Assembly: GCA_051294905.1 (NCBI GenBank)
Contig: CM119373.1
Span: forward strand, 5,458,001-5,522,000
Direction of reading: 5' to 3'
Length of the DNA: 64,000 bases
Origin: Botryllus schlosseri
Taxonomy: Eukaryota
The notes under the pieces: model-generated
Database searches by the model: none
What the model saw: the letters and a program-made list of their open reading frames with translations, nothing else
What the model was told of the DNA's origin: nothing
Shown: positions 11,998-62,906 of the stretch, piece by piece
Numbering within the stretch: position 1 is the first letter of the stretch
How the letters are laid out: each line of letters starts with the position of its first letter
Translations under genes and position numbers: made by a program

Positions 11998-12124
11998 TAA
12001 TGCAGGGTGTTTTCGAAAATTTAGGGCAAGTTATAAATGATGATGTATCTTCGGGTGAGCCAATTGTAATTATTCACTTTGTTGTATGTTTTTTTTAGCT
12101 CTCATCAGGATTGTTGGTATAGTG

Positions 12125-17430: not shown

Positions 17431-18086
17431 TCAATGACAGTTGTGAATCTCGTGTTCAATTACATCAACTTTCACAACATAATTAGATTCGTTGAAAGTC
17501 ATAGTCGAATCAGGGATGCAATGACATTCACCAGCTGCGTATAAACGTCCTATTTCATTGAGGGATAGTTCTCTATTCCAAACATGAAATCCTTGCATCT
17601 CACCAAAAAAGCCCTGATGGCCATTTTTGGTATTAGGAGGTCCTGGACTTGATCCGTTTATTTTGGAATCCTGATCTTGACCGAAAATTAGCACACCACC
17701 TCCATTTATCTGTCCAAATCCCGTCTTCGTATATTGCCGATATCCTTTTCGCGTACCATTGACGTAAAACGTAGCCGAATGGGAATTCAATACGAGGCAA
17801 AAATGCGTCGAATACGTGATTACCGGTAAGTCGCTTTCAAACGTAGTAGATCCCATGTCGGATTTCACAACCAGACTTGCCGAATATAGGGAGACCGTTG
17901 CGGCGTTGCAGCCATTCGAACCTTCGGCGCAGTAGCTCATGAATGTACCTTTCACAAGGTGCTCATGATCTGGTGATCGAAGCCACATGCATGCAGTCAG
18001 TGACGTCATGCGTGGTAGAGTGCCACGATATTGAACGTAATCAAGATGATCTTTCTCCGGAAATGTGAATTGAGAGATGGAGCAGC
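17431..18086 (-). CDS. Pentraxin gene C, terminal pentraxin-domain exon (open frame)
   Basis: Acceptor atatttcAG. Reads CSISQFTFPEKDHLDYVQY, LTACMWL, HFCLV, FYVNG, GGGVLIFGQDQD, FFGEMQGFHVWNRELS. Confidence 0.9.
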
Positions 18087-20834: not shown

Positions 20835-20938
20835 TATTCTCGACTTACTATTGTGATTTCCCTTTGTCCACAAGTAGACCGTGCTTGATCAACTTCTACT
20901 TGTGGACAAAGGGAAATCACAATAGTAAGTCGAGAATA
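20835..20938. repeat. Perfect 44-bp inverted repeat with 16-nt loop spanning the 47-nt exon of pentraxin C
   Basis: 20835-20878 is the exact reverse complement of 20895-20938. Confidence 0.95.
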
Positions 20939-21051: not shown

Positions 21052-21923
21052 GAAGAAGATGAAAGTAAAGAGGTGAAAGGTCTCCTATTCCTCCAAAAAG
21101 AATTGACGGATAAGCGCTTGAAATCAACATCAAAGTTGCTCGCTGTTGCCGTCCAGCAGGTAATTATAGGTTAAAAATTTTGAGCCATCATATCTTAACG
21201 AGTTGGGTGAGAGGGCTGTCCAGAGGTGGTCCAAGTAGTCAGCCATGCTACAGCAGTAGAGTGGAGGAAATGCTGTAAATTTCACCCACCTTTTCAATTG
21301 CAAGGTGCATCTTTGTGACTAACGCCCAAGGCAGAACCTTCTTGAGTATACGGAAAAAGTGAAAGTATTTCGTTGCTGATGTTACTCTTAGCGTGCCATC
21401 AATTAGTTTTAACTGTGTGTAAATAAGTCAGATCTCCAAGTTCTATTCTTGCTCGCCAGTCCCTCAACAATCTAGTCTGGTAATGGTGGTCAAGATTTGA
21501 TACTTTGACTACAAATAATAATAACCGCATTATTGAATGACTTATACATTCTTATTGTTTCAGGCACATGATGTTAAAATTGAATGCCTAAAACTGGACC
21601 CGCCGCACCTACTTATCGCCATCCACGAGTCGGGAGTTCATCAGGGATGGGTGTTGGTGGATGATATCACTATACCCTGCACAAAAGATCAAGGAATCCC
21701 AGGCATGGTCATTGGCCTGATGTCTTGTTACTATGTCTGGGACCTTAAATATCCAAAATCATTTATGATCCTCGGATTTATTCAAAAGACACTAATCGAA
21801 GACGAAAAAAACGACTTTTTCAAATCGGCAAAGTACGTCGAATTTGAAAAAAAAATACCGCGAGCCCTGTTTGTGAGAATTCAGAATATCCAATGGTATA
21901 TACAGACTTGGACAACTAGATAA
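21052..21923 (+). pseudogene. Two-exon 3' fragment of a SAMD3-like, transposon-associated (EnSpm-type accessory) gene
   Basis: Exon 21052-21159 and an exon starting at 21564 join in phase 0. Motif LMSCYYVWDLKYP..F.ILGFIQK.L recalls SAMD3-like C-termini. No 5' part seen. Confidence 0.55.
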
Positions 21924-22427
21924 TTCTAGAAATTAGACTAAACAGAGTGAAATCTTTCTCTGCTCCAATTTCAATTCTAATCCAATTTTGGAAATGTTTC
22001 TCAGCTCTAATTATAATCATATTTAAACAAATTTCTGGTTTACCGGAACAACTGTATAGTTCGAAACCAGCTTTCTGAGACAGACATTTTCCATTCTAAT
22101 GCTTATGAGAATAAAATCTGACTTGATGTGTACTGATATTGACCGGGTTTCAAATTTTTACACTAATTAAGTAATTACAATTATAATCTAATTTGAAGAA
22201 AAAAAACTCTTCATAAATCATGCTAATTCAAATCTAACATTTGGAAAAACAGTAGTAGATATAATTATAATTCTAGTCCTATTCGGTAGTCCTATTCGGA
22301 AATACTAGCTATAATTCGAAAAAAACTAGTTCTAATTTTAATTGTTGTCTAATATTGAAAAAAGCTGTGTATGCATAATTTGAAACTAACCCCAAAAAGT
22401 TGAAAATTTTCTAGTTGTCCCACTCTG
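21903..22427. mobile_element. Degenerate MITE with CTAATT/CTAGTT-rich interior
   Basis: Imperfect TIR CAGACTTGGACAACTAGA / TCTAGTTGTCCCACTCTG, no intact TSD. Confidence 0.55.
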
Positions 22428-24170
22428 GCTGTAGGGTTTGTAATAATGGCAATGTTGCTTGACATTCGAGCATAGGATGCATTGCAGTGTTGGGATCAAG
22501 TCACTACCTTCGAGTCACGAGTCATATCGAGTCATTGCACATTTTGACTCGAGTCAAGTCAAGTCCATCGTTTTTTGAAGGTGACTCGAGTCAAGTCAAG
22601 TCAGTCGATTTTCAAAGGTGACTCGAGTCAAGTCGAGTCAAGTCAAGTCAAGTCACGAGTCAAGTCACAATTCAAGTCAAATTGCCTTTTCGAGGTATGA
22701 GGCGTGATTACATCATTGTATTTCGCTAGCTGTCTGAAATACAGATTTAGTGCTGAGTGCACTGGCGTAGCAGCATGTGCTGCCGCCCCTGGCTTTGCTT
22801 AAAATTCTGCCCCTTAAGTAGATCGCAGCAAATTTCGACATAGATTCCTGTTCAAGTAATCTTGTCAATAAAAATAATTACGGATAATATGCCGCGTTTC
22901 AGCCTCACCGTCTCAACGTTGATAAGGCCAAAAATAATAAAGACAAGAAATAGCGAACGAATGTATTGTGCAAATAGATAATCAATAGCCGCCTCAAAGC
23001 AAAATCAGCGATAATACCCCCAAATTCAAGTTTTTGAACGTATTCTTTTTCTATAGACAGAATGGATAGAGCTAATAGCCGATCATCATTCATTGTAGAA
23101 CGTAAATAAGACTTAATCAGTTTGATATTTGAGAAGCTCCTCACACAGCTTGCAATAGAAACACCAATGGTCGGATAAAGTTTCAGACGCGAGCATAAAT
23201 ATCGTGTGGAATCAAGTAGCTATTTGCATTAACTAACCACTGTAAAACATCACACGCTGTTGCGCTACGATCAAACGTGGTTTCACTGCTCCGCACCAGC
23301 CCCTTAACCCTTTTAAAATCTCTAGTTGAACAACTTCATATGATCATATCTTAATTTGTGTACGTCCTAGAGGCCTCATATTGATTTGTACGAAAAGCTG
23401 GCAATCTTCTGATTTATATGATCCCTAATTCGAAGGTATATAAGGCATGACAATATTCGCAGCCAACTCCATAAAGTCCACCTCGTCGTCATAAGTGCTT
23501 CTAAAAGCGATCGTGAATCAATTGTGAATTTCGCTTTGCAGCAGCGCGTGGGAATTCAAAAATCCAAACATATCTCTCAAGTCAGGGGTGGGCAACATGC
23601 GGCCCGCGAAGGGATTTTGTCCGGCCCGCGGACTGTTTTCCGTCTTACGTGATAACGTGGCCTGCGGCCCCAGTCTGCCGAGATTCCCCACTATACTTTC
23701 TTACTAGGTACAATTTTAGTGATTATATGTTATTATATACGTGTAGTGTATGCGCAGCGTGCGAGAGTGGAGCTTATGCGTAAGTTCGGCCAGGCGAGAA
23801 GACTTGCATTATCCGCATTTACCATGTACTCAGCCCTAATGTCGTTTGTGGTAATCATAGTGTTTGTCGACTACAACGGTCATTTACAACAGGTTGATAT
23901 TTCTTATTTTTGATTCCGTAACCGCCGACATGTAGCCCGGCACACTTCTAGGCCTGTAAGACACCGCTCATGCCAGTGGTTGACAATTCAAAACGGGTCT
24001 CGGTCCACTTTTCGAATTTCGTAGAGGACGCAGGCCGCATGAATTCAATATCAACACAATTGAACAACGACGCTATCTCGTCACCTACTCAACCCTAATG
24101 AATTGATATCTTTGTAAACCTGGGATACTGGACTCATCGACCGCCTTGAAATCCAAATTAAAGATTGCAC

Positions 24171-24795
24171 CATAGTGTCCTATATGGTGTCGACAGAAGC
24201 AAATCTCACGGCTCAGTGAAATTGTATCACGTCACAATTTCCATTTGGCTACAGGCAATTGACGTTCATTTTTGACCGGCTTGCCGAGCATTAAATTTGG
24301 TAAAACGGGTATCAATCGAAAGCTGACTCTGCACTGATGACGAAAATATAAATTTTATTCCGCTTGCGGCCCTGGAACCCACACAATCAGCCTCGACTTT
24401 CCCATTGTTATGGTGGATGGCATTGGGACGCAACAATGCTTTTTGGACCTTTTTCTCTTGAGCTACACTCTCGTTTCGCCAGACAGCATTGTTGCGTCAT
24501 GAGATTCTCTCTCGTTTCGCCAGACAGCATTGTTGCGTCCATATGCCAATCTCTATAACAATGAAAAATTCAAGGCTGATTGTGGCAGTTCCAGGCCACG
24601 AGCGGAATAAAATTAATATTTTCGTAATCAGTGCAGAGTCAGCTTTCGATTGATACCCGTTTTACCAAATTTAATGCTCGGCAAGCCGGTCAAAAATGAC
24701 CGTCAAATTGCCTGTAGCCAAATGGAAATTGTGACGTGATACAATTTCACTGAGCCGTGAGATTTGCTTGTGTCGACACCATATAGGACACTATG
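24171..24795. mobile_element. Palindromic MITE, P-element-like
   Basis: About 280-bp inverted arms starting CATAGTGTCCTATATGG, 7-bp TSD ATTGCAC. Superfamily inferred from TSD length and CATAG ends. Confidence 0.8.
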
Positions 24796-25404
24796 ATTGC
24801 ACTGTGTGTTGACTGATCAGAGAGAACCGGACATGGCGGCGCCTGTATGACAACGCTATTCTCAAATCCACATTGTCTTCGTCATTATCGGCGAGAAATG
24901 GATTTGAAGTGACATTGCTGTCATTGAAATACATTTATTAAATACGATTTATTCCTTGTATATGTGGATAAATGGGTGAATGATGTATCGATTCAGCAAT
25001 CCGCCCCGCCAAGTACTTAATTTTCCTATTTCCGGCCCACCGACTGGAGAAGCTGCCCGCCCCTGCTTTAAGTGGTGTATGCCGGTAAACCTAGTTTCAG
25101 CTTCAAGCTTGAATCTGTCCAAAGCATAAAACATGCATCGTCTAACTTCTTCAACAATACTGCTGAGGCCAGCATCTTTTGATTGTTCGCAAGGCGTTCT
25201 CCTTTTTCCGCGAACTCTCCGAACAATCGGCCTTGACGGCCATTTCGGAGTGGTTCCACAGCCATTTTGACATATTAAATCGTGTTTTCGGAATCTGCGC
25301 GACACTAGCTTTCGATTGAGACCTGTGTGATTAAATTTTAGCTCACGGGACGCCAGCAATAGGACACCCAATTACGCTTCTTTTAGCCGGCTGTGTACAC
25401 TGTG

Positions 25405-25537
25405 CCAAGCGAGATAGTGTAATCGTGATGCGTCCCACTTCTTGATCGGTAGGGCGTGGGTTCGATCCCCGGCCGGGTCAGACCAAAGACTCGAAAACTG
25501 GTATCCACGGTTATCCCGCTAGGCGCTCAGCAATCAC
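25405..25537 (+). mobile_element. Second tRNA-SINE family (MetaSINE-like core), 5' part
   Basis: B box GGTTCGATCCC followed by GGTCAGACCAAAGAC..AAAACTGGTATCCAC..CCCGCTAGGCGCTCAGCA. Interrupted by the hAT at 25538. Confidence 0.65.
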
Positions 25538-26406
25538 CAGGCCGTGTTATTTTTGGCATTTCAGGAGCCAGATGCCAAAACTGCCCAAAATAAAAATTTG
25601 AAAATGCCAAAAGTAACACGGCCTGCCAATAGTGTATTTCGTTCATGGTGTTGTGTTAACAGGACCGAATTACAAACGAGAAGAGCGTGTGTGAAGGGCA
25701 GGTTTCTTACTCTATGGGTCCAGCCCACCCATTAGGGGAGAAAGCATGGTGTCCTAAATGGTGTGGGCACAGCGAGATTGAACGGCTGACTGCACTTGGT
25801 TTACGTCATACTTTCCATTCGTCCAAAGGCAATTTTACGGCTATTTCTGACCAGCTTGCCGAGCGCTAAATTTGATAAAACGGGTATTAATGGAAAGCTT
25901 CCGCTGTACTGATTACTAGAATATAAATTGTATTCTGCTCATGGATCTGTAACCCCCAAATTTCGTTGGGTGAAAAATTAATTCAGGAGAAACTTTGCTG
26001 ACCTGAGTTTGGAAGCACTGTTACAGTGCAAACAATTTAAGTCTATTCAAAAGCGGCAACAATCAGGTGTTTATCATGTTTGTTAGGCTTCTCATTCTTT
26101 TGCTTATTGGCACCGATTCCGAATGGATACTGCACATTTTGTGGTTTCGTTTGATATTATGAACCTATGTAATCACTAGGTTTTTTCTTCTTATTATTGT
26201 TTGTTGGTACTGATTATTAGTGGATGCTGCATATTTTTTGGTCTCTTTTGATAAATTGACCCAAATAAAGCGTTTTTATGACTAATTCGAGTCTGAAAAT
26301 ATCTATTTAGAGGTCGATGCCAAAACTTCCAAAAATAAAAATTGAAAAATGCCAAAAATAAGCTATTTTTGGCAGTTTTGGCATATGCCAAAAATAACAC
26401 GGTCTG
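25538..26406. mobile_element. Non-autonomous hAT with an extra internal right end near 25624
   Basis: TIR CAGGCCGTGTTATTTTTGGCA, 8-bp TSD GCAATCAC. Confidence 0.85.
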
Positions 26407-27555
26407 GCAATCACGGAGGAGAAAAAAAGTGGGTCCACACTAGATGACCTTACTATGAAGTCCGTATCGCATCTCCTTCGTCTAAGCATCTCGGTTGCGC
26501 AGGCGAAAATGAATACCATCTCTTTCTCTCTCACACACTGTGCAGCCTCATTTTGCCGCCCCCTTGGAGCCTGCCGCCCCTGGCGCAAAGTCAGAACCGC
26601 CAAGTGGCTGCTACGCCACTTGGTGAGTGGTTATTGATTTTGAACCGATGAACGAATATAGCGTTAAATATACGCGCAAGTAAGGCGCTGTATCGCTCAC
26701 ATGTATGTACAACTAATAAAATACGTAAGTAATTGCACAGCCTCAGTTTATAGTTACCAGTCAAAATTGAGAATAGAGAAACGAATTGATAAGATGCAAT
26801 ACAGTACCCTTTTGAAATTGATATGATACAATTCGAGCCTTCGCCAATTGTTGAGGACTATATAAACTATTTTCGAATTTAATTGCAATAAAACAAGAGG
26901 TTTGGTTAAGTTAAGAACACAGAACAGAAATAGACATTTTGCTATTAAATTACTTTACTATACTATAGTTTACGACAACGTAGACTGTAAGCTTCGCTGT
27001 AAGCTTCGATCACTTCGTTTGCGATCAATATATTTGTGAGAGAACAATGGAGGCTCAGTAAAACGCACGATCATTAAATGATTGGTCGCTCTCACGGGTT
27101 ACACCAGCGTTGCGCGAACAATCCGAACATCTGTAAGATACAGTGATTTTTATCGACACCGATTACTTGATGACTTGAAATTGACTCGTGGGATTTTGCT
27201 CCGAGTCACGAGTCAATTCACATTTCCGATACGCCGAGTCAAGTCAAGTCAAGTACTTTTAGTAAAGTGACACGAGTCAAGTCAAGTCATACGAAAAAGT
27301 GACTCGAGTCAAGTCCTGACTCGAGTCATCCCAACACTGTTTGTACATTTACGTACCAAATTATCGCCTTACTACCGTAAGCATCGAATTTTGAGAGTTG
27401 ACGAACTATACCGCTTCAAGTATCAAAAGTTATACAGAAATATTTTTTCAATAGTTTGCCTCGTGTTATGACGACACGATAGTCAGTTCACGACAATGTA
27501 AGTAACATACAACAGAACACAACATAACAATACAGCAGGACAGAAAAACAGCACA

Positions 27556-27735
27556 TTCAAAGCTCTTTCAGCGGAAGATCGTCGCAAGGAATCCATCCGT
27601 GACGCCTTCGTTACTGGTCTTCGATCAAACGCTATCAGACAGAGAATATTAGACAGTGACGGGGCTGTAGCCCTCGAATTGTCAGTTTCAAGAGCCCGAT
27701 CATCAGAATCCGCCCAGAGAAGCTCTATGGTACCT
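27556..27735 (+). mobile_element. Gypsy-type LTR retrotransposon gag fragment
   Basis: Translates ALSAEDRRKESIRDAFVTGLRSNAIRQRILDSD..ALELSVSRARSSESAQ. Confidence 0.7.
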
Positions 27736-27777
27736 ACTGAAACCAGTCTTGTACAAACTAATGGATTTTCACAAAGT

Positions 27778-27965
27778 GCAACTAGAACTAGAACTAGAAC
27801 TACTCAAATTTAAAACTCGCAACTACAACTACAACTAGAACTACCCGATTTTCAAAATCTGCAACTACAACTAGAAATAGAACTACCCAATTTCAAAAAT
27901 ATTAACTAGAACTAGAGCTAGAACTAGTCAATTTTCAAAATCGCAACTACAACTAGAATTAGAAC
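27778..27965. repeat. (ACTAGA/ACTACA)n hexamer array, probably a MITE subterminal repeat
   Basis: Directly visible tandem hexamers. Confidence 0.85.
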
Positions 27966-28135
27966 CAGGGTTGTAATGACTCGAGTCATTTTGATTCGAG
28001 ACTCAGACGGCCAACAGCGACATTTCATTGTAATTTCGAAGAATAGTAAAGCAAACACTCTATTGGGGCTTCGTCTATTGGTACTGGTACTTGAAAATGC
28101 GACCAAAAACTATTAAAAGTTAATAAATTGGTATT

Positions 28136-29434
28136 CAGAGGTGGTCAGTAACGAAGTACTTCTACTTTTTCGAAGTACTCAAGTAGTTTCCCTCTACTTC
28201 TGGTACTTACTCAAGTAGATCTGATTTTCGCTACTTCTACTTCTACTTCGTAATTTTTTGTGATCTACTTACTTACTTTTCGCTATTTTCAGTTTGTCAA
28301 GTAGAAGTAGTTTAATCCTTTAATCAGGAAGATAGCCTGAGGAATTTCGGGTCTGTTTTCACGGAGTATCAACATTTCATTTTCATAAAAGTTGAGTAAA
28401 GCCAAAAATTTTCGTCGCGCTACGCGCTCAGTGGATACGGAGTAGCCAGTATGATTTCACGAAAGTATCGGTGAATATAATTTGGGTAGCGGGTTGGCGT
28501 GGTTCCGTTCACACCGCATTGTCACCCTTTGCCCATATGGAATGTTTCACCGGAGTATATATGGCTCATCATAACGTTTGAAACTGATGTTTCGCAATCT
28601 ACCATTTACTTATCATATCGTAATCTAGCAGTCCATGGCATGTCCTAATCTGGAAAAGTGAACTCTGACTTTTTTAGTTTTAGAGCTGTTTTAGCATACC
28701 ACCTTTGAAACTTTCTTTCTTTAGACATGAAATACATATTCCGCTTTTAGAAGTAGTATTTAGGCTGTACTTGACTTTCTATTCCCAGTATCATACTTTG
28801 AGCTCAAATCAATATCAGTTATTTTGTCTCGATAACATGCCATGTTGAAGTATAAAAGCAAGTGTAGTAATGCCTTCAATTTCCGGAAATAAAGCTACAC
28901 AATATGGCATTTTCACGATCCACCATATTTTGTATTCACGCTTACTAATCGCGCAAAGTGCCTTCACCGCATCCTATACAACATCTCCGCATTGCACTTC
29001 GACTTCACCACTGGCCTTATAATATGGGGGAGGGCGCAATATCATGATATTTTCTAGAACGATTTCTAGTTCGATTAAATAGAGGATTAGTATCGCATTT
29101 CCATATCAATACTATCATTTTCATCCCATGATGCGGACGAATGCTTATGCTGTCGAAAATTGAATACCTCCTGGTATACATCAATATGAATCAAGGTACG
29201 CACCTTTCGCATTGCTCAATATGCACCTTTGGACAATCCATGTGAACGAATTACGATCGTTTTCACAACTACTTACTTACTTGAGTAGATTTAAAGTCAG
29301 TCAATTCTACTTCTACTTCAAGTAGTTTTAGGTTTCTTATGGAAGAAGTACTTCTACTCGTACTTGAGTAGATTTATTCGTCGCTACTTCTACTTCTACT
29401 TGAGTAGCTTTCTTGACTACTTTGACCACCTCTG
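28136..29434. mobile_element. MITE with ACTTCT-rich subtermini (partial relative at about 4057-4620)
   Basis: TIR CAGAGGTGGTCA / TGACCACCTCTG, TSD unclear. Confidence 0.75.
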
Positions 29435-30723
29435 TATATTATAAATGCGAACCACTCGATATCACCGAATAGGGTTATAACAGTGGGTTTAACAAGACTT
29501 TACCTGGAAAATGAGCAGTCAAATCAATGACTTGGACTCGAACCTCTGCTCGATGACTCGGACTCGGACTTGACTGGGGGGCGAATTGAAAATGACTCGA
29601 CTAAACTAACATTTCTTAAAGCCAGACTGTAGAGTCAAGTGTACCTGTTTGATGCAGGTGTGGTCAGTCTAGTTGACCTTCACGGTCGTATCGATCATTC
29701 CTATCTAATACCGAATACTGTGCAAGCATATTTTCTGTACCACCATCACTGCCGTCCGTTTTTATGTATTATGGTTGTATGAAAATAATGACTCTCTCCC
29801 TCTCTCTCTCGAACTTGCCTGCCGACGAATGCCGCATTGATTTTCATGGCTAGTTAGCGTAGTGAACCTGAATTTAATCCACTAAATCTGCCGTGAAACA
29901 TTCTACTTTATGGTGATATACTAAGATCTACGAAAAATGTGGCTGGTTTTGCGGTAACGCCACTGCGTCGGTATTGGTATTTCTATCATCAACATCCCAA
30001 ATTTCACGGTCAGGCTATTCAAGTTTTTGGTTGGGATTGTATGTTCACAATAAAGTACCAATTACCTCGGCTATACTCATTTTTGATGATAAAACGAATT
30101 TGGAAAATTATCTCGCGAAACATTGGAAGCCTGTTCGCGGGTAACAGTTCGGCCAGCCCTGACTTTGATTAACGAAGTAACATTTTCAAGATTTGTCACA
30201 TATTACAACATCCTGACGTGTTGCACGGAAAAAAAATTGCAGATTTGAAATCAGTGACCTCAAATTAGTGTAATTCAGTATTCAAAGTCAAAACCAAATT
30301 TTGTGCTGTATTTATGCCTTATAGCGCTAATTCAGCGATGTGATTTATAAAGTAAGCCCATATGCTTATTTCTTATCTCCGCAAAAAATACAATTCGGAA
30401 ATCGGTTAATCATTTCCGTGTATTTGATAAACGGCCGATGATACTTGATGAGAAGACCAAACTAACACTTGGCCATCACTAAAATAAGTTTAGCATCCTG
30501 AGTTTTGTTTTCTCGATGTTTGCTCATTCTTTATACCTTGCGACGTCATTTCAATATTGCGAGCTATATCTTATGAGTTTCCTGGTTTCGTAGCTGCGTA
30601 GAAAATCGCAATTAGGAAATCGGCAAATCATTTCCGTGCATTAAATAAACAAACTGTCGGCAATATCCAATGACCAATCATCATTTGAGATTCTTGCTAA
30701 ATCAGAGATGGCATTTGCCTGTG

Positions 30724-30765
30724 TGACTCAGCTGAAGTGGGTGGCATAACTTGTGAACCTATAAA
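30724..30765 (+). promoter_or_regulatory. Candidate FReD1 core promoter: AP-1 site TGACTCA plus TATAAA
   Basis: TGACTCA 30724-30730 and TATAAA 30760-30765, about 90 bp before the ATG. Both conserved at 35002-35008 and 35038-35043. Confidence 0.5.
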
Positions 30766-30854
30766 TTCACCAGCCCACCACCCACCATTTTAATAATGTC
30801 AGTAAGATACGCGCCGCCACGGCAGCTGGCATTGAATATCAGATTGTTTCTAAA

Positions 30855-32342
30855 ATGTCGCTCAAGATTTGGATTATTTTGCTGTTCGGATTCACGATAT
30901 ATCTTCGTTCATCAGGTACGATGAATTTGGATTCCGATTTGAATCGGATTGTAGTTTTTCTTTTCCAGCGAAATTCTGCGTGAGAAGATACGTCAACGGT
31001 AAATGGATCTCGAAGGGAGATTGCGGGGTTGTTATACGAGTGGCTCAAGGTTACCGCTGAAGGTTATGTTATGTGTACTTTTCATGAAGGGCTCGGGAAG
31101 CATCTCAGAGATGCAGAAAAAAATTCAACTCAAAATCAACGATGAGAAGAAAAAGTGCATCGCGGATAAGGAATGGACTGTTGAGTAGCATTTCAACTCT
31201 TTTTGATGCGGCGCAATTTCGATTCAATTGAATTCTTGTGGTACTGAATGCTGTTGCAGGTCTTCCAGCGACGAAAATACGGAAACGTGAATTTCAATCG
31301 AGGTTGGGATGATTACGTGAACGGATTCGGGGATTGTGATGCAGATTTGTGGCTAGGTAGGAAGATTTTTTAATTTGATTCGTTCAATTTGTAGGTTTTC
31401 GTCGATGTTATCTTGTTGGTTATGACAGGGATGGTGCGAATGTAAGGTGCACGTTCGCGTTATGTGTGTGAACCTCTGGAATTTTGATGTTCGCGTTCAC
31501 AAACTAACCTTGGTTCTGCGCAGTGAACCTTTTGCATGTAATACAATTTCCATGTTATTATAACGTATTTCGTTGAAATTCCTCGCATGACATCTTGAAA
31601 GACAGTCAGCACTAAGCGAGCATGCACCTTGCCTATTTCAAAAATGATTTGCTAGAAAGTCCGCTCGGAATATTCGTTGGTGAATCAGTAGAGGATATCT
31701 GTTGGGATCTTTGTCCGCAATCAGTTACTACATCAACGAAATAAATACAGAGAATGCATCGATGTCTGATGTAAAAATCTATCAGACACACGGGATCTAT
31801 CAAAGCTTATTCTTGCAAAGCAGTTTGATTCAAAACCAACGTATCCCATAACTCCGTATCGTCTGTCTCCAGGGCTCGAGGAATTGCATAACAGGACAAA
31901 GGAAGGAGATATGGAGTTGGAAATCAACATGATAACCAAAGATGAAGCAATCCATTGGACGGCAAAATACAGGCAAGTCTGAAGCAACGGTCTCTGTGAA
32001 AACATGCAACCAACAATTCTGTTTCCCAGCTCCTTCCGCATCGGACCCGGATCCGACAAGTACAGACTGCACGTCTCCGGATACTCCGGGAATGGAACCG
32101 GTGGAGATGCTTTCTCATATCTCAACAATCAACAATTCACGACGAAAGACGCGGACCACGATAATGCGGCGTCAGGGAATTGCGCTTCCCTATTCGAAGG
32201 AGGCTGGTGGTTTTACGACTGCGCCGCCGGCAACCTGAACGGAAACTTCAACAAAACAGACCATAAGGGGATCTATTGGAATGGTTCCTCCAACCTCCTG
32301 CGATTCTCGGAGATGAAGATCCGGAAAAGAGCAAGAAATTGA
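30855..32342 (+). CDS. Secreted fibrinogen-related protein FReD1 (6 exons, 239 aa): 30855-30915, 30969-31027, 31090-31179, 31260-31356, 31873-31972, 32030-32342
   Basis: Signal peptide [21 protein letters not shown]. Motifs [63 protein letters not shown]. All phases join. Confidence 0.9.
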
Positions 32343-32829
32343 CTCTTGTACATCTGTGACGTCACAGCGGCGTACGAATGCGGTGATCGATTTGCTAAAA
32401 ATTGCGAAAACAGGACAAAGGATCAAGGCTTCATAGTGCCATCTCGCGGTCGCACAGCAATCAAATGCTATAATAATCCCATAAAATCAACTATCTTCTG
32501 TCGCTTTGCTTTGTCCGAGATAGGGCCGAAAAAATTTGAAATTTTATCAAAAACTTGAGTTTTTTTAAGTTTTAAAAAAGGACCTTCAAAATTTGAAAAC
32601 TGGACATAAGTCTCTTTGATTCCACTGCGACGACAAGCTTACGCTACGTCCAGGCCAGACCGGACAATGTATTCCGAGTCTGGCTATTGCTACATTGATA
32701 TTGAGCAGAGTGTAAACGGTTTTCTATACTTTCTATACTCTATCCCCCCATTAACAAGTTATACAGCAGCCAACATCCCAATCGCACGGGTTTGGATTCC
32801 ATGATGCAATAGACAACTCTTGTTAGCGC

Positions 32830-33462
32830 GTGAGAGAGAGAGAGAGAGAGAGTCTTTATTTTCATCGAACCAAAATACATAACAAACGGCAGTGATGGTG
32901 TTACAGAAAATATGCGTGCACCGTATTCGGTATTAGATAGGAATGATCGATAAGACCGTAAAGGTCATCTAGTCTGATCACACCAGCATCAAACAGGTAC
33001 ACTTGACTCTGAACAGTCTGGCTGTAAAGAAATGTTTAGTTAAAGGAAAATAGAAAAAAAATTAAACAATGGTGGCAAATGATCAATGAAGCAATGTCTG
33101 GGCGAGGTAGGGCAACAGTGTTAGTGTAACGACAAGAGGTGATCAAGTAGGGCTTTTTTGAATCTATTATAAGGCAATTCACGGATATGTGGTGGTAATG
33201 CACTCCAGATGATAGGTCCCGAGTAGTCGATAGATCTCTTAGTTAGGTTGTTATTGGGTGGGGGTAAGTAGATGTTTCCTTTATACGAGGATCTCGTGTA
33301 ATGGGAATGGACATGTTTAGCAGGTATGAAAAAGTCATCAAACACAGTAGGCAGACTATTGGAAAAATATTTGTGAACAACTTTTGATACTTCGAAGCGA
33401 TATAGTTCATCAACTCGCAAAATTCGATGCTTACGGTAGTAAGGCGATAAATTGGTACGTAA
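32830..33462 (-). mobile_element. 3' end of a CR1/L2-group LINE (ORF2 tail, 3' UTR, AATAAA, (TC)n tail)
   Basis: HSHYTRSS..IYLP..SIDYSGPIIWSALP motif. Related + strand pieces at 27348-27450 and 29600-29810. Confidence 0.85.
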
Positions 33463-35134
33463 AGGTTAGGGTATTACCTTGTTTCGTGTGTATTTCTATT
33501 TAATTACTGATCGGTGTAATCGTCATTATCACTCGCGTTTTTCTTTCCCTATATATTCAATCGGTAGAACTGTTTTGTTGGTTACTTTGTAAGGACGGTT
33601 GAAGATTTGCGGTCAGGCATTGTTATAAATCCTACGTTTACTCTGCCCTTGCCTACTTTGTGTCATGATATATTCAATCATTGTAGTAAAGGACTGTGTT
33701 TGATTTATACCGGCGTTACCGACCGTCAAGATTAGACAGGCTTCTGCGCCTATAGTCGCCACACGAACATTTCGCGTGCCGCGCAGAAACAATAGACTCC
33801 CAAAACCTTGGCAGTCACTGAGTAGCCGGTGAAACGTTTTCACTAGGACAATAATTCAATGGAATTGCGCTATCAAGAGAGATGGGACTGCGATATTATG
33901 GCAGACTTATTGCTGGAGTCTAGACAAAGGAATTACAAAAGCCCAGCAATACAGAAAACCATCGAAGAGAAAATTTGTTGGTAATATTTTAATATTTTAC
34001 ACCTAAATAGGTTTGGAGTTTACCGATCTGGCATACCTACATGCATGAATTATATTCCATCCTCTCCGTGTATTTCATTGGTGTTGCGTCTCTGACTTTG
34101 CTTAACGCTCTCGTTTTGTGAAATCTCTCGTTGTTGTTGTTGTTATACCATTCTTACCTCACACTACCTCTTTCATCTTTACATTTCGAATTGCAATCTC
34201 CGTATTATACCGATGGCCACTACCGACGAGGGTCAGTTGAAAAGCTTATTGTGAATAAATTGCGATTATGAATGTGTTGTTCGTTGTAATATTCAAATTC
34301 TGTACCACAGGGAGCCTATTTGAATTATATTTGTGAATACATCTAGCTTCTCATAAACTTCAAGATATGGCGTAAATCCTGAGATAATTGTGTAGTAGAA
34401 TTTAAAATATTTTTACATTCTTTGACCAAAAATTTCAATATTATATTCCAGATTTGTCACATATCTCAAAATCCTGACGTGTTGCACGAATAAATAATTG
34501 CATATTTGAAATCAGCGACCTCAAATCAGTATAATTCAGTATTCAAAATCAAACAGTAAATTTTGTGTTATATATCCATTTTACTATTTATACCTTGTAG
34601 CTCTAATTCAATGCTCTGTGATATATAAAGTGAGTCCATATGCTTATTTCTTATCTCCGCAACAAATACAATTCGAAAAACGGTAAATCATTTCCGTACA
34701 TTTGATAAACGGTCGATGATACCCGATGAGGAGCCTAAACTAACACTTGCCCATCACTAAAATAAGTTTGGCATCCTGAGTTTTGTTTTCTCAACGTTTG
34801 CTCATTCTTTATACCTTGCCACGTCATTTCAATATTGTGAACTTTATCTTATGAGTTTCCTGGTTTCGTAGCTGCGTAGAAAATGGCATTTCGGAAATCT
34901 GCAAATCATTTCGGTGCATTAAATAAACAAACTGTCGGCAATATCCAATGACCAATCATCATTTGAGATTCTTACTAAATCAGAGATGGCATTTGCCTGT
35001 GTGACTCAGCTGAAGTGGGTCGCATAACTTGTGAACCTATAAATTCATCTATCCACCACCTATCATCTTATTAAGGTCAGTATAGGATACACGCCGCCAC
35101 GGCAGCTGGCATTGAATATCAGATTGCTTCTAAA

Positions 35135-36927
35135 ATGTCGCTCAAGATTTGGATTATTTTGCTGTTCGGATTCACGATCTACCTTCGTTCATCAGGTACG
35201 ATGAATTTGGATTACGATTTGAATCGAATTCTATTTTCTCTTTTGCAGCGAAATCCTGCATGAGAAGATACGTCAACGGTAAATGGATCTCGAACGGAGA
35301 TTGCGGGGTTGTTATACGAGTAGTTTAAGGTTACCGCTGAAGGTTATGTTCTGTGTACTTTTCATGAAGGGCTCGGGAAGGACCTCGGAGATGCAGAAGG
35401 AAATTCAACTCAAAATCAAAAATGAGAAGAAGAACTGCATTTCGGGCGAGGACTGGACAGTAAGTAGCATTCCAAAATTTTAAATATTTCGGATACAGCG
35501 CAATTTTCATTGTTAATTTCTTGTGTTGTTGAATGCTGTTTCAGGTTTTCCAGCGCAGAATAAACGGAAACGTTGATTTCTTCAGAGGTTGGGATGATTA
35601 CGTGAAAGGATTCGGGGATTGTGATGGAGATTTGTGGCTCGGTGGGAAGATTTTTCAATTTGATTCGTTCAATTTGTAGGTTTTCGTCGATGTTAGCTTC
35701 TTGGTTATGTCTGACTATAGGGTTGGTGTGAATGTAAGGTGCACGTTCGCGTTATGCGTGTGAACCTCTGGAATTTTGATGTTCGCGTTCACAAACTCAC
35801 CTTGGTTCTGGACAGTGAACATTTTGCAAATAATACATTTTCATGTTATTATCACGTATTTGGTTAAAATTCTTCGGACGACATCATGAAAAGAAATTCA
35901 GCACTAAGTGAGCATGCAGCTTGCATATTTCAAAAATGATTTGCTAGAAAGTCCGCTCGGAATATCCATCATTTCGTTTGTGAGTCTGCAGAGAATCTCT
36001 AATGTGATCTTTGTCCGCAATCAGTTATTACATCAACGAAATAAAGATAGAGAATGCATCGATGCCTGATGTAAAAAACAATCAGACATACGGGATCTAC
36101 CTTGGTTTGATATCTTTATCGTATCACAAAACCAAATCCTTCCTATATTGGGGTGTTGGCTACTGCATACCTTGTTTTTGAGATAATATCTTGCGGAACC
36201 AATGTTTCACAATGTTAAGTTGCCGAAGGCTTAAGAAATCGTTGGCGAATTTGCGATTTTGAGGAATTGTGATGGCATATTTGATTGTTCCTATTGATAT
36301 AATCAGGTGATCTTTAAAATGTCGGCGTTTACTTCAGCATTGTGGCATTACACGCTCCAAGTGATCGCTAGTCACCGAAGCAGTTTGATTTAAAAGCAAC
36401 ACCCCACCTAACTTCACATCGCTTGAACCAACACCTTCAATAATTTTGTAACGTTTGTCTCCAGGGCTCGAGGAATTGCATGAAAGGACAAAGGACGGAG
36501 ACATGGAAATGGAAATCAACATGATCAAGGAAGTTGACGGAGCTCGCTGGGTGGCAAAATACAGGCGAGTTTGGGGCAACGGTCGTTGTGAAAACATGCA
36601 ACCAACGATTCCTTTTCCAGCTCCTTCCGCATCGGGCCCGCATCCGGCAACTATAGACTGCACGTATCCGGATACTCCGGGAATGCGACCCGCGATGCTT
36701 TCTCACCTCACAGAAATCAACAATTCACAACGAAAGATGCGGATCACGACGTTCATTCGTCATTAAATTGCGCTACTTACCGCGAAGGAGCCTGGTGGTT
36801 TGCCGGGTGCGGCAACAGCAACCTTAACGGGAACTTCCACAAAACAGGCATCAAGGGAATTCACTGGTACACTGGCTCCTACATCAACCTGCGATTCTCG
36901 GAGATGAAGTTCCGCAAAAGATCGTAA
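35135..36927 (+). CDS. Secreted fibrinogen-related protein FReD2 (6 exons, 237 aa): 35135-35195, 35249-35307, 35370-35459, 35545-35641, 36465-36564, 36621-36927
   Basis: Tandem paralog of FReD1 with identical sizes for exons 1-5 and an open frame to TAA at 36925-36927. Confidence 0.9.
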
Positions 36928-37092
36928 ACGTGACGTCACAGCGACGTACGGATGCGTGGATTGGAACTTTATAGCGCCCTCTCGCGGTGATCGATTTGCG
37001 AAAGGTTACGAAAACAGGACAAAGTATCAACGCTTCATAGCGCCATCTCGCGGTCACACAGCAATCAAATGCTATAAAAATCCCATAAAATC

Positions 37093-37576
37093 AAATAACT
37101 TCCCTCCCACACTTCCGCTTTGCTTTGTCCGAGATAGGGCCGAACATAAATTGAAATTTTTTCAAAAACTTGCTTTTTTCTAGATTTGTAAATCGACCTT
37201 CATTCTTGATGTGTGATTACGAGCCACGCTCTCAGCAGAGAGTCACTAAATATTCTCGAGCTAACTTGTGCAACAAAGCAAGTGAAATTTTTCATGATTG
37301 GCAAGGTGCATGGTCGTGTTGCGTTGATTTTGCTATGGTAAATAACTTCCCTCCCACACTTCCGCTTTGCTTTGTCCGAGATAGGGCCGAACATAAATTG
37401 AAATTTCTTCAAAAACTTGCTTTTTTCAAGATTTGTAAATCGACCTTCATTCTTGATGTGTGATTACGGGCCACGCTCTCAGCAGAGAGTCACTAAATAT
37501 TCTCGAGCTAACTTGTGCAACAAAGCACGTGAAATTTTTCAAGATTGGCAAGGTGCATGTGTTGATTTTGCTATGT
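37093..37576. repeat. Two-copy tandem duplication, period about 247 bp
   Basis: Unit starting AAATAACTTCCCTCCCACAC at 37093 and 37340, nearly identical. Confidence 0.92.
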
Positions 37577-37638
37577 TACCAGCGCCATGCATAGAATGAT
37601 CCTGTAGTTGAAATGCAAAGAATTTAAACCAACTAGAG

Positions 37639-39218
37639 CAGTGGTTCCCAGCCTTTTTCATCTCGTGCCTCCCTTGGCCGAAGCTTGAGCCAAAATTCCC
37701 CCCTTAGGAGAAATCTGCCCGATGATTGAAAAAGGTCATTTTTTACCGCGCAATCACCTGTTTACCGAAGAATAAGATCGGAGGTACGGAGTGTCTGTTT
37801 CTAGCAGGGCTGTAACAATACTTTGTAGACCTCCGATAACAATGGTCTTGGTCACAATCAAACAAATTCTGGAAGGCTTGACTCAACAGACCCCCACCCT
37901 TCTATTTGTGTTTTCGGCTTATCATGCACTAATCGCTAATAAAACTGCTGTGAAAAATCAGTATGCATAAATTTGCTGGTCTCGCGATTTTTTCTAAAGT
38001 GTGCGTATGCATTTGGCCAATAATATTGGTATTTTCATGTATAGCAGGATTGACCACATTCGAGTTGCACTCGAGTCAGCATTTTCTGATGACTCGACTT
38101 GACTCGAGTCATTTTCTCAAAATAGGGAAACAACTCGACTCGACAAGAGACAATCTGTGTATTGACTCGACTTGGAGTCATTGTACATGACTCGAACCAA
38201 GCCATATGACTCGTGACTATAAGACGGCCAATACCGACATTTCATTGTAATTTCGAAGATCAGTAAAGTGGCCTTCCTATTGGAATTTCGTCTATCGGTC
38301 CTGGTACTTGGGAATGCGACAATAAACTGCCCAAAGTGAGGAAAATTAGTATATTATAAATCAAAATCATTCAATATCACCAAACAGAGTTATAAAGAGT
38401 GAGTTTAACAAGACTTTAACTGGAAACTGAGCAGTCAACACACGGAATTGGACTCGGACTCGAGTCATAATACCATAACTCGAACTCGACCCTATGCTCG
38501 GTGACTTGGACCGTCTGACTTGACTCAATGGTGAATTGAAAATGACTCGACTTGACTCGAGTCAAAACTATGAAAGTGAAATTGACTTGTGACTCGGAGC
38601 CTCGTGACTTGGTTACAGCGCTGATATATACCCTGATATATAACATACACGTGATCAGATTTCCTGCTTGAGCTCATTGAAATTTAGGACACTCATTCGG
38701 TTTCGGCAACATTGCGCCAAGTTTAACATGCATTTTTTCGATCGAGTAGCTGTTCACTAAAAATAAAGCAAGGCTAGTGATCTCTTTGACTTGAATCGAT
38801 GACGTTGGAATATTTTGTCACTTTATGAAAATGTTGACACGAAAATATAAGATAAATACTTCCGTTAGCGGCCTTGTTGTGATAGATTCGGCACGACATT
38901 TGCTCGCTTAGAATATATTTGATTGAGAGGCCGTCGCTGGCCTACAAAATTGTCTTGCGAACTGCAGCACATCTGAACTAGTTAAAAAAAACAAGGGCGA
39001 ACTTGTATGGGAGAAAGAGATTTCAAATAGCATTTGAACATACTTTCAGCAAAAAAACAGCTATAGACAGCATACGCTCTGATATAACTGGTTGCCAACA
39101 TGACAGTTCGGACATGGAACATTTTGGGCAATCCATTACAATTCTGAAGTGGAATTCCTCCCTAAAAATTGCAAAATTCCCCCGAAGGGGGGAATTCCTC
39201 CCGGGTTGGGAACCACTG
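37639..39218. mobile_element. Non-autonomous hAT, same family as 12125-13559
   Basis: TIR CAGTGGTTCCCA, 8-bp TSD AACTAGAG. Confidence 0.92.
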
Positions 39219-39889
39219 AACTAGAGCAAGTTTGCATTTACCCATCATATCGTAATAGCAGTCCACGGCGTGAAAAAGTGGGCTTCAACGGTTTTGAGCG
39301 TTAGACCTGTTTTAGCAGACCACCGTAAAACTGTCTTGATAAAATACATGAACGACGAGACGAAAAACTCCAATGTTAATGAGTGCAAAATGCACATTCT
39401 TTAGGCGTCGCATCCTGTCTGCTCAGATTTTGGACTCTGTAAACCTTGCGTATCACTCTTGTATTCAGTCAAAATCAAGCAACCCAAATCGATAAATAAA
39501 TAATGTTAGCTTAGGTTTTCATTTGAGACTACTAAGAATGCAAGCGAGATTCGCAACAATGTTTGCTCGACGTCGCTCGATGGAATGAAGAGCGAGACAA
39601 CAGTAACGAGGACAATTTTTAGCACACACTAGCGAAAAGACAATTTAACAGTAACCAAACAATCAAATCGACTATAAGCGTACAATTGCAATTATTAGAA
39701 AAAGCGAATTACGATATGATTCCTCTAAAAACGACATCAAATAAAGGATAGAAAAAACATGTGGAACCACAAACAAAATTGTCCGCTTTTTTGAAATAGT
39801 ATTGGTATTTCTCGTTCAATTCGCAGTATCATTACTTAAAATTCTAATTAGTTTCAGTGCTTTTGTCTCGAAAACATACATGTTGAAGT

Positions 39890-40822
39890 CAGTGTTGGGA
39901 TCAAGTCACTATATACCTTCGAGTCACGAGTCATTTCGAGTCATTGCACATTTTGACTCGAGTCAAGTCAAGTCAATCGATTTTTGGAGGTGACTCGAGT
40001 CAAGTCGAGTCAAGTCAAGTCAAGTCACGAGTCAAGTCACAATTCAAGTCAAGTTGCCTGTTCGAAGCACAAGGCATGCTTACGTCATTGCATTTTGCTA
40101 GCTGTCAGAAATAAAGATTGTTGGTCATTGATTCTGGACTCATGAACGAATATAGAGTTAACTATAAACGCAAGAAGGCACTTTATTGCTCACATATACG
40201 TAGAAATGCTAAACTACATAAGTAATAGCATAGCCTCGGATTATAGTTACCAGTCAAAATAGAGAATAGAGAAACGAATTGATAAGATGCAATACACTAC
40301 CCAGTTACAAATTGACACAATTCGGGCCTGCGCTAATGGCTGTGGACTATATAAACTATATTATAATTCAATTTCAATAAAACGAGTTTGGTTAAGTTAA
40401 GAACAGAGAACAGAAATAGACATTTTGCTATTAAATTACTTTACTATAGTAGTTTACGACAGCGTAAGCTGTAAGCTTCGATCACTTCGTTTCCGATCAA
40501 TATATTTGCGTGAGAACAATGGAGGTTCAGGAAAAAGCACAATCATTGAATGATTTGTCGCTCTCACGGGTTACACCAGCGTTTCGCGTACAATCCGAAC
40601 ATATGCAAGACACAATGATTTTTATCGACATCGATTGCTTGATGACTCGAAATTGACTCGTGAATTTTGCTCCGAGTCACGAGTCAATCCGCATTTCTGA
40701 TACGCCGAGTCAAGTCAAGTCAAGTCATTTTAGCAAGGTGACTCGAGTCAAGTCAAGTCATACGAAAAAGGTGACTCGAGTCTGACTCGAGTCAAGTCAT
40801 GACTCGAGTCATCCCAACACTG
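39890..40822. mobile_element. hAT-type MITE, right copy (933 bp, uninterrupted)
   Basis: TIR CAGTGTTGGGAT. Its own flanks GTTGAAGT/ATGCATTG do not match each other. Confidence 0.9.
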
Positions 40823-41297
40823 ATGCATTGTAGAATGACAGCCTAGCAAGCAGCACTTGAGCAGGTGTCTTTACGATTCGAAAATTATCCTAAATCTAAC
40901 ACTTACCAAACACAAGCTTTAACCTACATGCTCAAGTGTTTGACTTCCTCATGCTCAAGGGTCGTATCCTATTATGTCGCTTGCTCATCATATGTCCGCG
41001 TACCGTTTTTTATGTCGTTGCACGTTGCACCTATGTTTCAAATGAGTTGGTGCTTTTTGCAATAAAATTCGTTTTCGTTTCAAGTTCTGCGTCATTGTTG
41101 AACACGTCTGGGTTAGTTGTTTTAATTTCGAGCTCTGTGGCAATATTAAACACGACAGCGTTACCTAAAACGCGAAAATGCGTGACACGCAATACGAAAC
41201 GCAATCAGGCGGTGAAAATCGACTCACTTTTGGCGTTTTGTTTTCCGTCTCATAAACGCCAATGAAATTGAGAGTGTAGCATCTTATCAAATACGTC

Positions 41298-41444
41298 GGA
41301 GCCGGAGCTACTCCTCAAATAACGGGCTCCAGCTCCGGCTCCGGCTGAATTTTATGTAGAGCTCCGGCTCCGGCTTCAGCTCCGGTGAAAATGCACGGCT
41401 CCGGGGCTCCGGCTCCGGGCTCCGGCTCCGGCTCCAAAGCCCTG
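41298..41444. repeat. (CTCCGG)n array forming a MITE end (..AAAGCCCTG)
   Basis: Visible tandem hexamers ending in a CTG terminus. Confidence 0.7.
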
Positions 41445-43259
41445 CGGCCAATACCGACATTTCACTGTAATTTCACAGAATTGTGAGGTACCCACCCTTT
41501 TGGGATTTCGTACGATTGGTACTGGTACTTGAAAATGCGATCAGAAACTGCTCAAAGTGAGGATTAGTATATTATGAATGCGAAACATTCGATATCACCA
41601 AATATAGTTATATAAAGTGAGTTTAACAAGACTTTTACTGGAAACTGAGCAGTCAACATAATGACTTGGACTCCGACTCGAGTCATAATACTATGACTCG
41701 GACTTGACCCTCTGTTCGATGACTTGTGGACTCGGACTTGACTCGATGGTTGGTTAAGCACCAGCGTCACGACATCAGTGGCAGTTGTTCAAATCCCGGT
41801 TCGGACCAACTTCTATGTGTTGGAGGTTTCTCTCGGCTCCTCATCGCCGACCTCACTGTAGTTGCAGTGCGTTGAAAAGTGCAGACTGATAGCGAGTCGT
41901 GCTACAACTCGGTAGCAAAGATCACGACGGGTACGCATGGATGCGAGAGAGACTGGAGTCTGAATCAGTGAAAGATTGAAGAAGTCCTCCCCAAGATGAC
42001 CTCGCACAAATACTTATGAGCATTACAAACAATCGTGTGGTGGTGTACATAGCCTGAAAAAGGCGAGGAGCCCACTGCAAAAAGTGAAATATTAAGAATA
42101 ATAAAACTATCTACATATAATATATATGTACGTATAGAAATTTCGTAGTTCGACTTATTTGTAAGCAAATTCCACGCAATAATGTACTGAGAAATTAAGA
42201 GAATTGCTAATAGTAATCTTGATCTTGTTATTTACCGTCCCAATGGGGGGGTCTCTGGTTCCAAAAATAACGCAAGTGGGAACGAAGCAAAAATGTTTGG
42301 CAACCACCGAGGTGACAAACCTAATTATTTTTTCTGCCAACAACGCATGTCTGATTACCCCGCAATTCTGGAATGGCGGCTCTCGAACAATAAATCTGAC
42401 CTACGGTTATCGATGAAAGACGATCTTGCGGAGATAATCGTATTTCTTATCGATGTATTTAAGATTAGGCTTGGCAATAACCAAAATTATTCTCATACAC
42501 TTGTGTCCGCTAATTCATATTTTGATTTAAACTTATTTCAATAGTAACACGAGTATGCATATACCTCATGAATATTAGCAACACATTCTAGTGATATTTA
42601 AAAAGAGCAATACTTCCAATATGTTTCCGATATAGAATACGGCAAAGGAATAATCACAACTGGCACGAATCAATAACTCAAATAAAAAGATTGATTAACA
42701 TAATAAGAATATTAACTACCCCTATATAATAATCATATTTGATGTCCTTTTGTGCCAATGCCGTAATGAACGGTGCGTGATATAGTCACGCGCCACAACT
42801 CGATGCGTCAAGCGAACACATTCCACATTGCGTTAGTCACCGTCACACCAAGTTTGCGATTTAGTTTTATATGTTAATCACCACCGATTCTAAAATGCCT
42901 CAAGTTGCAATAAGATCATGAATAATAAATAGCATCACCATAATCGGGGTGCAAAAACGATGACACGCGCTCCTAGTATAGTTCCAGCAACTGTTATAAG
43001 TTGGTTATAAATATATTACACTGTTTTATTGTTTGCGCCGGTACTTCTATGGGTCATATTTACCTATTTCGGGGCGCAAAATTCGAATCTGGCCTTAGTT
43101 TTGTTCTATCTCATCACGTTTTCAAGATAACATATGTGTCGAATATTATTACTACTTTTTCGGGGTAAAGTAGATTTGGCCTAATTGCAGTAGCTACTGA
43201 AGTAGTTATGTTTTCAAGCTACTTCTACTTCTACTTGAACAGTATTTCGGACGACCTAT

Positions 43260-62856: not shown

Positions 62857-62906
62857 AAGGCCTGGTGATCATCTCGACTATGTAAGTCACTTTGTCATTG
62901 CTCAAA

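Follow-up and report, generated by a model that had tools for sequence, protein, structure and literature searches.

Evidence for a probable natural macrotransposon bounded by two MITEs and carrying lectin genes in an animal-type genome

Can a pair of short transposons carry whole genes to a new site in an animal-type genome? The question is raised by C3:5,458,001-5,522,000, a stretch of 64,000 nucleotides (hereafter the window). In it, two copies of one miniature inverted-repeat transposable element (MITE), which we call MITE1 and MITE2, enclose two genes with a fibrinogen-related domain (FReD). We followed up an initial annotation of the window by comparing it with a 495.5-Mb genome assembly. 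The results support the view that the block from MITE1 to MITE2 is a natural MITE-pair macrotransposon carrying lectin genes, of a kind known from maize.

A single insertion in repeat O

The ends of the block and its outer flanks, including two copies of a target site duplication (TSD), are as follows.

21485..22476, no strand assigned: left part of target repeat O (outer flank); over the 1000 bp that adjoin the block, 5/5 fetched O copies match at 90-96%
22477..22484, plus strand: left TSD copy, ATGCATTG; single in 5/5 fetched paralogous O copies
22485..27339, plus strand: MITE1, subfamily B; a nested insertion divides its ~987 bp of MITE sequence into 22485-22752 and 26621-27339; lacks its own TSD
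39890..40822, plus strand: MITE2, a complete subfamily-A element of 933 bp; lacks its own TSD
40823..40830, plus strand: right TSD copy, ATGCATTG; from the sequence and from paralogous O copies
40831..41279, no strand assigned: right part of target repeat O (outer flank); other O copies match it at 91-96%

The terminal repeat CAGTGTTGGGAT[C/G]A is found four times in the window (0.77 expected), on the plus strand at 22485 and 39890 and on the minus strand at 27326-27339 and 40809-40822, and nowhere else in it. These four ends make up two complete MITE copies in direct orientation, each with a left end reading ...GGGATCA and a right end reading TCATCCC.... From left to right, the flanks and elements run ATGCATTG / MITE1 / TTTGTACA ... 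GTTGAAGT / MITE2 / ATGCATTG. The coordinates and 8-mers that the initial annotation gave for both MITEs, and the 8-mer shared by their outer flanks, proved exact. Its statement that neither copy has a TSD of its own is borne out by the flanking sequences. The 8-mer ATGCATTG is itself not rare, with five occurrences in the window (3.8 expected).

Copies of repeat O elsewhere in the genome contain the corresponding unoccupied site. The left outer flank (21985-22484; 500 bp) and the right outer flank (40823-41279; 457 bp) match the same 12 other loci, in full for the left flank, and the two matches overlap by exactly 8 bp in 12/12 of them. All five O copies that were fetched read ...gcatagg ATGCATTG tagaatgacagc..., with the 8-mer once (ATGTATTG in one of the five). 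Because the flanks are contiguous with an 8-bp overlap in other O copies, 22485-40822 (18,338 bp) is a single insertion with one 8-bp duplication inside repeat O. The empty sequence predicted by the annotation was therefore found, in paralogous copies of the repeat and not as an orthologous allele.

The MITE family makes 8-bp TSDs, as the annotation had assumed. Among 29 other full copies, 22 have a perfect TSD, four have one mismatch, one has two mismatches, and two are unclear (one decayed with an indel, the other with a duplicated end). Five of five further subfamily-B copies also have a perfect TSD, giving 27/34 overall. With family TSDs mostly perfect, two neighboring copies that lack them are unusual. 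The targets are diverse. A preference of the family for ATGCATTG had been named as a finding that would undermine the proposal, and the evidence is against it: ATGCATTG is not a recurrent target, because the O site is occupied by a MITE in 0/12 other copies and the 8-mer is the TSD in 0/34 other family members.

The family is large, with 5210 first-look candidates in the genome. Its ends read CAGTGTTGGGAT, with 12 bp perfectly inverted. hAT terminal inverted repeats begin YARNG, which the MITE ends fit with CAGTG; P-superfamily elements also generate 8-bp TSDs. TSD length and end motif together make hAT the likely superfamily. A palindromic motif, GACTCGAGTC, is present 20 times in the window (0.03 expected) and is strongly clustered near both ends of both MITEs (at 22546, 22583, 22620, 27301, and 27318 in MITE1 and at 39955, 39992, 40740, 40773, 40784, and 40801 in MITE2). 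These repeats are putative transposase-binding sites. There was no Pfam match in open reading frames (ORFs) of at least 75 amino acids overlapping MITE2, or in MITE1 outside the nested element.

The two MITEs and their inner flanks

If a solo MITE at ATGCATTG had been enlarged later, then both outer ends of the block would derive from that one element. We typed both MITEs at 84 columns that separate subfamily A (seven copies) from subfamily B (five copies), with the tallies counted by eye. MITE1 is B at 77/84 columns, A at five, and other at two, over positions 87 to 947, and its left and right parts have the same 10 or more loci as their best genomic matches. MITE2 is A at 81/84 columns and other at three, over positions 96 to 882 of 933. 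Its nearest relative in the genome, on C4, shares 95% identity with it over positions 1-933. The two MITEs are 78-85% alike, and each is 3-10% from its nearest relatives. Since the typing is largely uniform along each element and both parts of MITE1 share their best loci, there is no visible chimerism, and each outer end is that of a separate, whole element. The same divergence and the different subfamilies rule out an origin by tandem duplication of a single MITE and subsequent filling-in.

The inner flanks lead to further repeats, which are listed here with the nested insertion.

22758..26621 (approximate, ~3.9 kb), minus strand: nested hAT-like insertion in MITE1; absent from 12/12 other MITE copies aligned; holds further repeats
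27340..27475, plus strand: MITE1 inner flank, half-site TTTGTACA and a fragment like a long interspersed nuclear element (LINE) without its upstream half; 725 first-look relatives
27971..29602, plus strand: complete repeat H without a MITE; GTTGAAGT at 28844-28851
33790..39889, plus strand: segment paralogous to C1:11853422-11858601 (minus strand), from collinear matches
37641-39218, within the preceding segment: block of transposable elements (TEs) absent from C1, from the C1 comparison
39219-39889, within the same segment: left half of repeat H, ending in half-site GTTGAAGT

On the MITE1 side, the sequence belongs to the LINE-like family over 27342-27475. Six of six fetched LINE copies extend at least 130 bp upstream through the insertion point, via ...CTCAT[C/T]TGTACCTTTACG..., and at the outer end of MITE1 the O sequence starts exactly where this upstream half should be. 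On the MITE2 side, the left flank (~39219-39889) is the left half of the abundant repeat H and ends in GTTGAAGT (39882-39889). At least 1,736 genomic copies have GTTGAAGT together with the H right-half motif (the 28-nt start of the C1 right half, with up to 3 mismatches), and the motif is exact only at C1. The C1 paralogue has an uninterrupted H, ...CATACATGTTGAAGT/ATCAAATCAAGTG..., with one GTTGAAGT and no MITE. In the window, this H lacks its right half, and O sequence takes over exactly at the end of MITE2. By these alignments, both inner flanks are half-sites of host repeats. Both breakpoints match the outer MITE ends to the base and therefore point to a transposase, or to recombination inside the MITEs.

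The nested insertion in MITE1 has a hAT dimerization-domain remnant on the minus strand at 22908-23219 (PF05699, E value of 3e-4, just below the Pfam cut-off). A possible TSD matching at 7/8 positions, GCTGAGTG/GGTGAGTG, is plausible but ambiguous. The initial annotation had contrasted it with the perfect outer TSD to argue that the block moved later. We give that argument no weight, because it depends on a single mismatch in an ambiguous TSD.

The GTTGAAGT site in H has been struck at least three times independently by the MITE family. The copy in the window is subfamily A in plus orientation, a B-like copy at C15:21190060 (L037) is also in plus orientation, and a copy at C13:13080545 (L036) is inverted. 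L036 and L037 must be independent insertions at one site, because their MITEs are in opposite orientations within H copies of the same orientation. This also rules out that MITE2 derives from an H::MITE composite that spread through the genome. Several more MITE copies adjoin GTTAAAGT variants, and GTTGAAGT in H looks like a strong insertion hot spot.

At the start of the LINE-like flank, one sequencing run (X3) has a 522-nt contig (depth 71) that, from letter 243 onward, matches 27351-27630 with three differences. Letters 1-242 of the contig do not resemble the end of MITE1, which lies before 27351 in the window. The next best match to 27340-27545 in the assembly is at most 93%, so there is no second near-identical copy of the start of this stretch, and the contig may be another allele that differs left of 27351.

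Another MITE family, R (~560 bp), has CAGGGTTGTAAT at its ends and, close to them, shares the GACTCGAGTC motif; its transposase may be a related one. Three insertions of R surround the C1 paralogue (offsets 21722-22282, 23703-24257, and 27927-28490), and one lies in the block (38060-38623). Stretches linked to it are also present at 12120-13559 and 37634-39218 of the window.

How the block arrived

The best explanation is one-step macrotransposition, and we consider it probable: one hAT-type transposase event would have used the outer end of each MITE. The donor locus would have had MITE1 in a LINE copy and MITE2 in an H repeat, in direct orientation. A hAT-type transposase making an 8-bp staggered cut would have brought together the left end of MITE1 and MITE2's right end, and the region between these outer ends would have been excised or copied as one macrotransposon. 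It would have consisted of the two MITEs and at most roughly 12.5 kb of chromosomal DNA, with one FReD gene or more. Insertion at ATGCATTG in an O repeat between pentraxin genes would then have duplicated the 8-mer. We infer the action of the transposase in one step, the supply of a hAT transposase in trans, and the extent of the original cargo. The nested hAT, a 98%-identical LINE fragment between the FReD genes, and the TE block at 37641-39218 may be later additions. The initial annotation's claim that the block moved as one unit by its outer ends is supported by the single scar, the 12/12 empty paralogues, the half-sites, and the nonchimeric MITEs.

Several observations weigh against this explanation. 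The donor locus was not found in the assembly by searches for the end flanks, the footprint, or the junctions. The left 6.4 kb of the cargo (27340-33790) has no C1 counterpart. The right 6.1 kb is collinear with C1, but C1 is pristine at its H site. The first 87 and last 51 bp of the MITEs have no subfamily markers, and a crossover there would be invisible. Finally, a comparison with reads over 21700-41600 (X1 and X3, which are from one sample, X5, from a marine metagenome, and X7, from organism B) was dominated by short contigs and repeat matches and gave no usable match for either junction, an empty site, or a solo MITE.

A donor, for which the annotation had suggested searching, was not found in the assembly. 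Genome-wide, TTTGTACA beside a left MITE end gave no exact match, and the four one-mismatch matches were unrelated. A right end beside GTTGAAGT gave three exact matches, two of which are other H copies, and 20 one-mismatch matches, those inspected being other H copies or unrelated. The two other H copies with a MITE end are only 81-86% like the H half in the window. For the right half of H at C1, no genomic match exceeded 93%. The footprint pattern had eight matches in the assembly (10 in a reversed control), and H was beside none of the three that were fetched. The pattern for a LINE-to-H junction had no match in the genome. C1, as assembled, is ruled out as the direct donor, because its H site has one GTTGAAGT, no footprint, and no MITE.

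Metagenome scans for the two junctions returned no matches for either. In X1 and X3, unique cargo pieces were recovered with no differences and at a depth like that of other single-copy pieces. An X5 contig that starts at 40822 after 85 unaligned letters is indistinguishable from an O paralogue. X7 has contigs ~99% identical to 33499-33793 (cargo) and 40419-40571 (inside MITE2), compared with 95% for the nearest relative of MITE2 in the assembled genome; the block may also be present in organism B.

An identical set of flanks and empty paralogues would result from two steps, in which a solo MITE inserted at ATGCATTG in O and MITE homology then brought in the cargo from a donor arranged as MITE...cargo...MITE. 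Candidates for the second step are ectopic gene conversion or synthesis-dependent repair of a break, a double crossover, and the integration of a circle that MITE-MITE recombination had excised. Thousands of family copies are available for recombination, the two subfamilies have conserved ends that lack diagnostic columns in the terminal stretches noted above, and the missing donor footprint is in keeping with this route. However, the solo MITE would have to supply both the left of MITE1 and the right of MITE2, yet the block reads B from position 87 of MITE1 and A up to position 882 of 933 in MITE2. On the subfamily typing, the exchange must therefore have taken place within the terminal 87 bp or less on the left, or 51 bp or less on the right, of elements of ~950 bp. 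The assembly also has no intact donor with both MITEs and their own TSDs, and a 12.5-kb tract of nonallelic conversion between chromosomes is a rare event. We regard the two-step route as unlikely.

It is less likely still that a transposase made the insertion from other original ends or in another order, either as a reversed-ends re-replication composite, whose cargo would join two donor stretches that were not neighbors, or as a longer macrotransposon that was trimmed later. The collinearity with C1 ends at 33790, and the left 6.4 kb without a counterpart could mark an internal junction; however, later TE insertions and a secondary FReD copy explain this break equally well. Composite insertions bounded by transposon ends are described in maize (PMC4270019, PMC9910405). 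Re-replication would have kept the donor intact, and there is none in the assembly. Trimming by MITE-MITE recombination would have left a chimeric MITE, which neither MITE1 nor MITE2 visibly is. An assembly artifact, in which two mis-joins within MITEs spliced a foreign 18-kb piece into an O repeat with a solo MITE or none, is compatible with a read comparison that is dominated by repeats and displays no junction-spanning reads. We nevertheless consider it very improbable, because mis-joins within repeats would not create exact element ends beside a perfect 8-bp duplication. In addition, the divergence between MITE1 and MITE2, together with that from their nearest relatives, makes them readily distinguished, and the unique cargo pieces in X1 and X3 are at single-copy depth without differences.

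Cargo, known systems, and meaning

The genes inside the block and the repeat between them are as follows.

30178..32588, plus strand: FReD gene 1 (FReD1; secondary copy); Fibrinogen_C exons 31248-31370 and 31983-32339 (PF00147, E values of 5e-9 and 2e-19; tblastn)
32837..33466, minus strand: young LINE 3' fragment between the FReD genes; 98.3% to a copy on C16
34321-37340, plus strand: FReD gene 2 (FReD2); Fibrinogen_C exons 35533-35676 and 36592-36924; collinear with C1 on both sides

The initial annotation had described both FReD genes as intact. This is borne out in part, each gene having two open Fibrinogen_C exons in the right order. Its placement of the FReD genes in a pentraxin cluster holds, with pentraxin exons on either side of the block, at 1527-2195 (plus strand), 5111-5815 (minus strand), 17434-18108 (minus strand), and 50585-50926 with 53157-53630 (plus strand). 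Fibrinogen_C exons in the window are found only inside the block. No FReD coding sequence was found elsewhere in the window, and similarities at 44661-45294 are to intronic repeats.

Counting substitutions only, FReD2 is 88.9% identical to its C1 counterpart, and the downstream flank is 93.7-96.6% identical. The last 268 bp before MITE2 are 96.6% identical between the window and C1. FReD1 is 86.7% identical to FReD2 and 87.3% identical to C1, and all three pairs fall within 86.7-87.8% over 2,378 shared columns. The informative sites split 33/26/23 among the three possible groupings and favor no clear branching order, so that the block may have carried either one gene or two at the time of its move.

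The exons for the fibrinogen-related domain are the most diverged parts of FReD1, FReD2, and C1, at 78-85% (window 31079-32339 and 35400-36924; C1:11855100-11855800), and the introns and upstream stretches are 90-95% identical among the three. For the last exon, the synonymous divergence (dS) is 0.34-0.46, and the ratio of nonsynonymous to synonymous divergence (dN/dS) is 0.55-0.90, in a codon alignment that starts with a few intronic codons. This pattern suggests exchange with other family members or diversifying change. The 630-bp LINE fragment at 32837-33466 matches C16:728304-728934, which is also downstream of a FReD paralogue. Despite the 98.3% identity of the LINE fragment, FReD1 and that C16 gene are only ~79% alike. 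The shared fragment could be a coincidence, a young unit resembling a short interspersed nuclear element (SINE), or the result of local gene conversion. It has an open frame on the minus strand (33124-33465), which we take to be a reverse-transcriptase C terminus, although Pfam found no match there. Downstream of FReD2, a 247-bp tandem duplicate at 37093-37578 is 93.5% (BLAST) to 98% (ungapped, 220 nt) identical.

Other features lie outside the block. The pentraxin gene at 49145-54452 is a 95% duplicate of 69-3020 and is split by a ~2.4-kb insertion (50831-53199). A perfect 44-nt inverted repeat with a 16-nt spacer is located at 20835-20938, 1.5 kb left of the block. Two adjacent plus-strand frames at 62167-63743 match Baculo_FP_2nd (E value of 2e-9) and the Exo_endo_phos endonuclease domain (E value of 4e-8) and are probably the 5' part of a retrotransposon without long terminal repeats (non-LTR retrotransposon).

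The closest likeness that we found is in maize. The White Cap Tam3L macro-transposon was diagnosed by elements without their own TSDs, noncontiguous flanks, and a matching outer 8-bp duplication (bioRxiv 10.1101/082677). Here, too, neither MITE has its own TSD, there is one outer TSD of the family's length, and the outer flanks are contiguous at an unoccupied site, in paralogous O copies. Both structures have two hAT elements (a likely assignment for the MITEs) and one common outer 8-bp duplication, with flanks contiguous in an insertion-free reference; both also involve the transport of whole genes to another site and contain one cargo gene in duplicate. They differ in that the maize structure is in a plant and consists of Tam3L elements, whereas ours has noncoding ~0.95-kb MITEs of two subfamilies in an animal-type genome. 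Furthermore, the maize donor is known (1.9 Mb away) and the empty site is orthologous, whereas the empty sites here are paralogous repeat copies.

Maize macrotransposons require one left and one right end, which direct orientation supplies (PMC9910405, bioRxiv 10.1101/082677), and the direct orientation of MITE1 and MITE2 likewise provides one left and one right outer end. With Ac, Ds, and fAc of maize, the 5' end of one element and the 3' end of another in direct orientation act as one transposon with an 8-bp TSD or footprint. Reports give lengths of 10-28 kb and, at the largest, about 100 kb (Huang and Dooner 2008 and Wang et al. 2022, via PMC9910405; PMC3260210). Since Ac macrotransposons of 28 kb and about 100 kb are reported (PMC9910405, PMC3260210), the size of our block is no obstacle. 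In maize, excision and reinsertion were seen genetically, whereas here there is a static structure only.

The initial annotation had compared the block to a bacterial composite transposon. Tn5 and Tn10 are transposons of this type. The comparison is apt for how the structure works, in that cargo genes lie between paired copies of a small element, and the whole moves by the outer ends (PMC1676026). However, each insertion sequence of a composite transposon encodes a transposase, whereas the MITEs here have no Pfam-matching ORF and would have to be mobilized in trans, and the cargo is eukaryotic and bears introns. The block is therefore not a member of that class, because its flanking MITEs encode no transposase. 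A Pack-MITE, or transduplication, also has host sequence between transposon ends (PMC2817404), but it is a single element with gene fragments. The block is not a Pack-MITE, because it has four ends, from two complete elements, and whole multiexon genes with introns and flanks. In literature searches using the term macrotransposon and its variants, we found no natural gene-carrying macrotransposon in an animal, and almost all reports were on plants. Nonplant uses of the term were speculation on Anopheles P-MITEs (PMC1562414), a paper on Drosophila Galileo, and a medaka review.

One-step movement of the block would mean that noncoding MITEs can transfer complete lectin genes from one chromosome to another and so start a cluster of mixed immune genes. 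For a static structure, the evidence is unusually clean, with a dozen empty paralogous sites, two half-sites, and different subfamilies at the two ends. It also offers a concrete combination to test, a left end from one subfamily and a right end from the other, with a cargo of 12-18 kb. More tentatively, pairs of abundant MITEs might form a working gene-relocation system, in which a transposase supplied in trans shuffles FReD genes into pentraxin clusters, and the block might still be mobile, because all four MITE ends are intact. We think this broader idea doubtful, but if it is true, then FReD lectin genes would be repeatedly shuffled into other immune clusters, such as those of the pentraxins.

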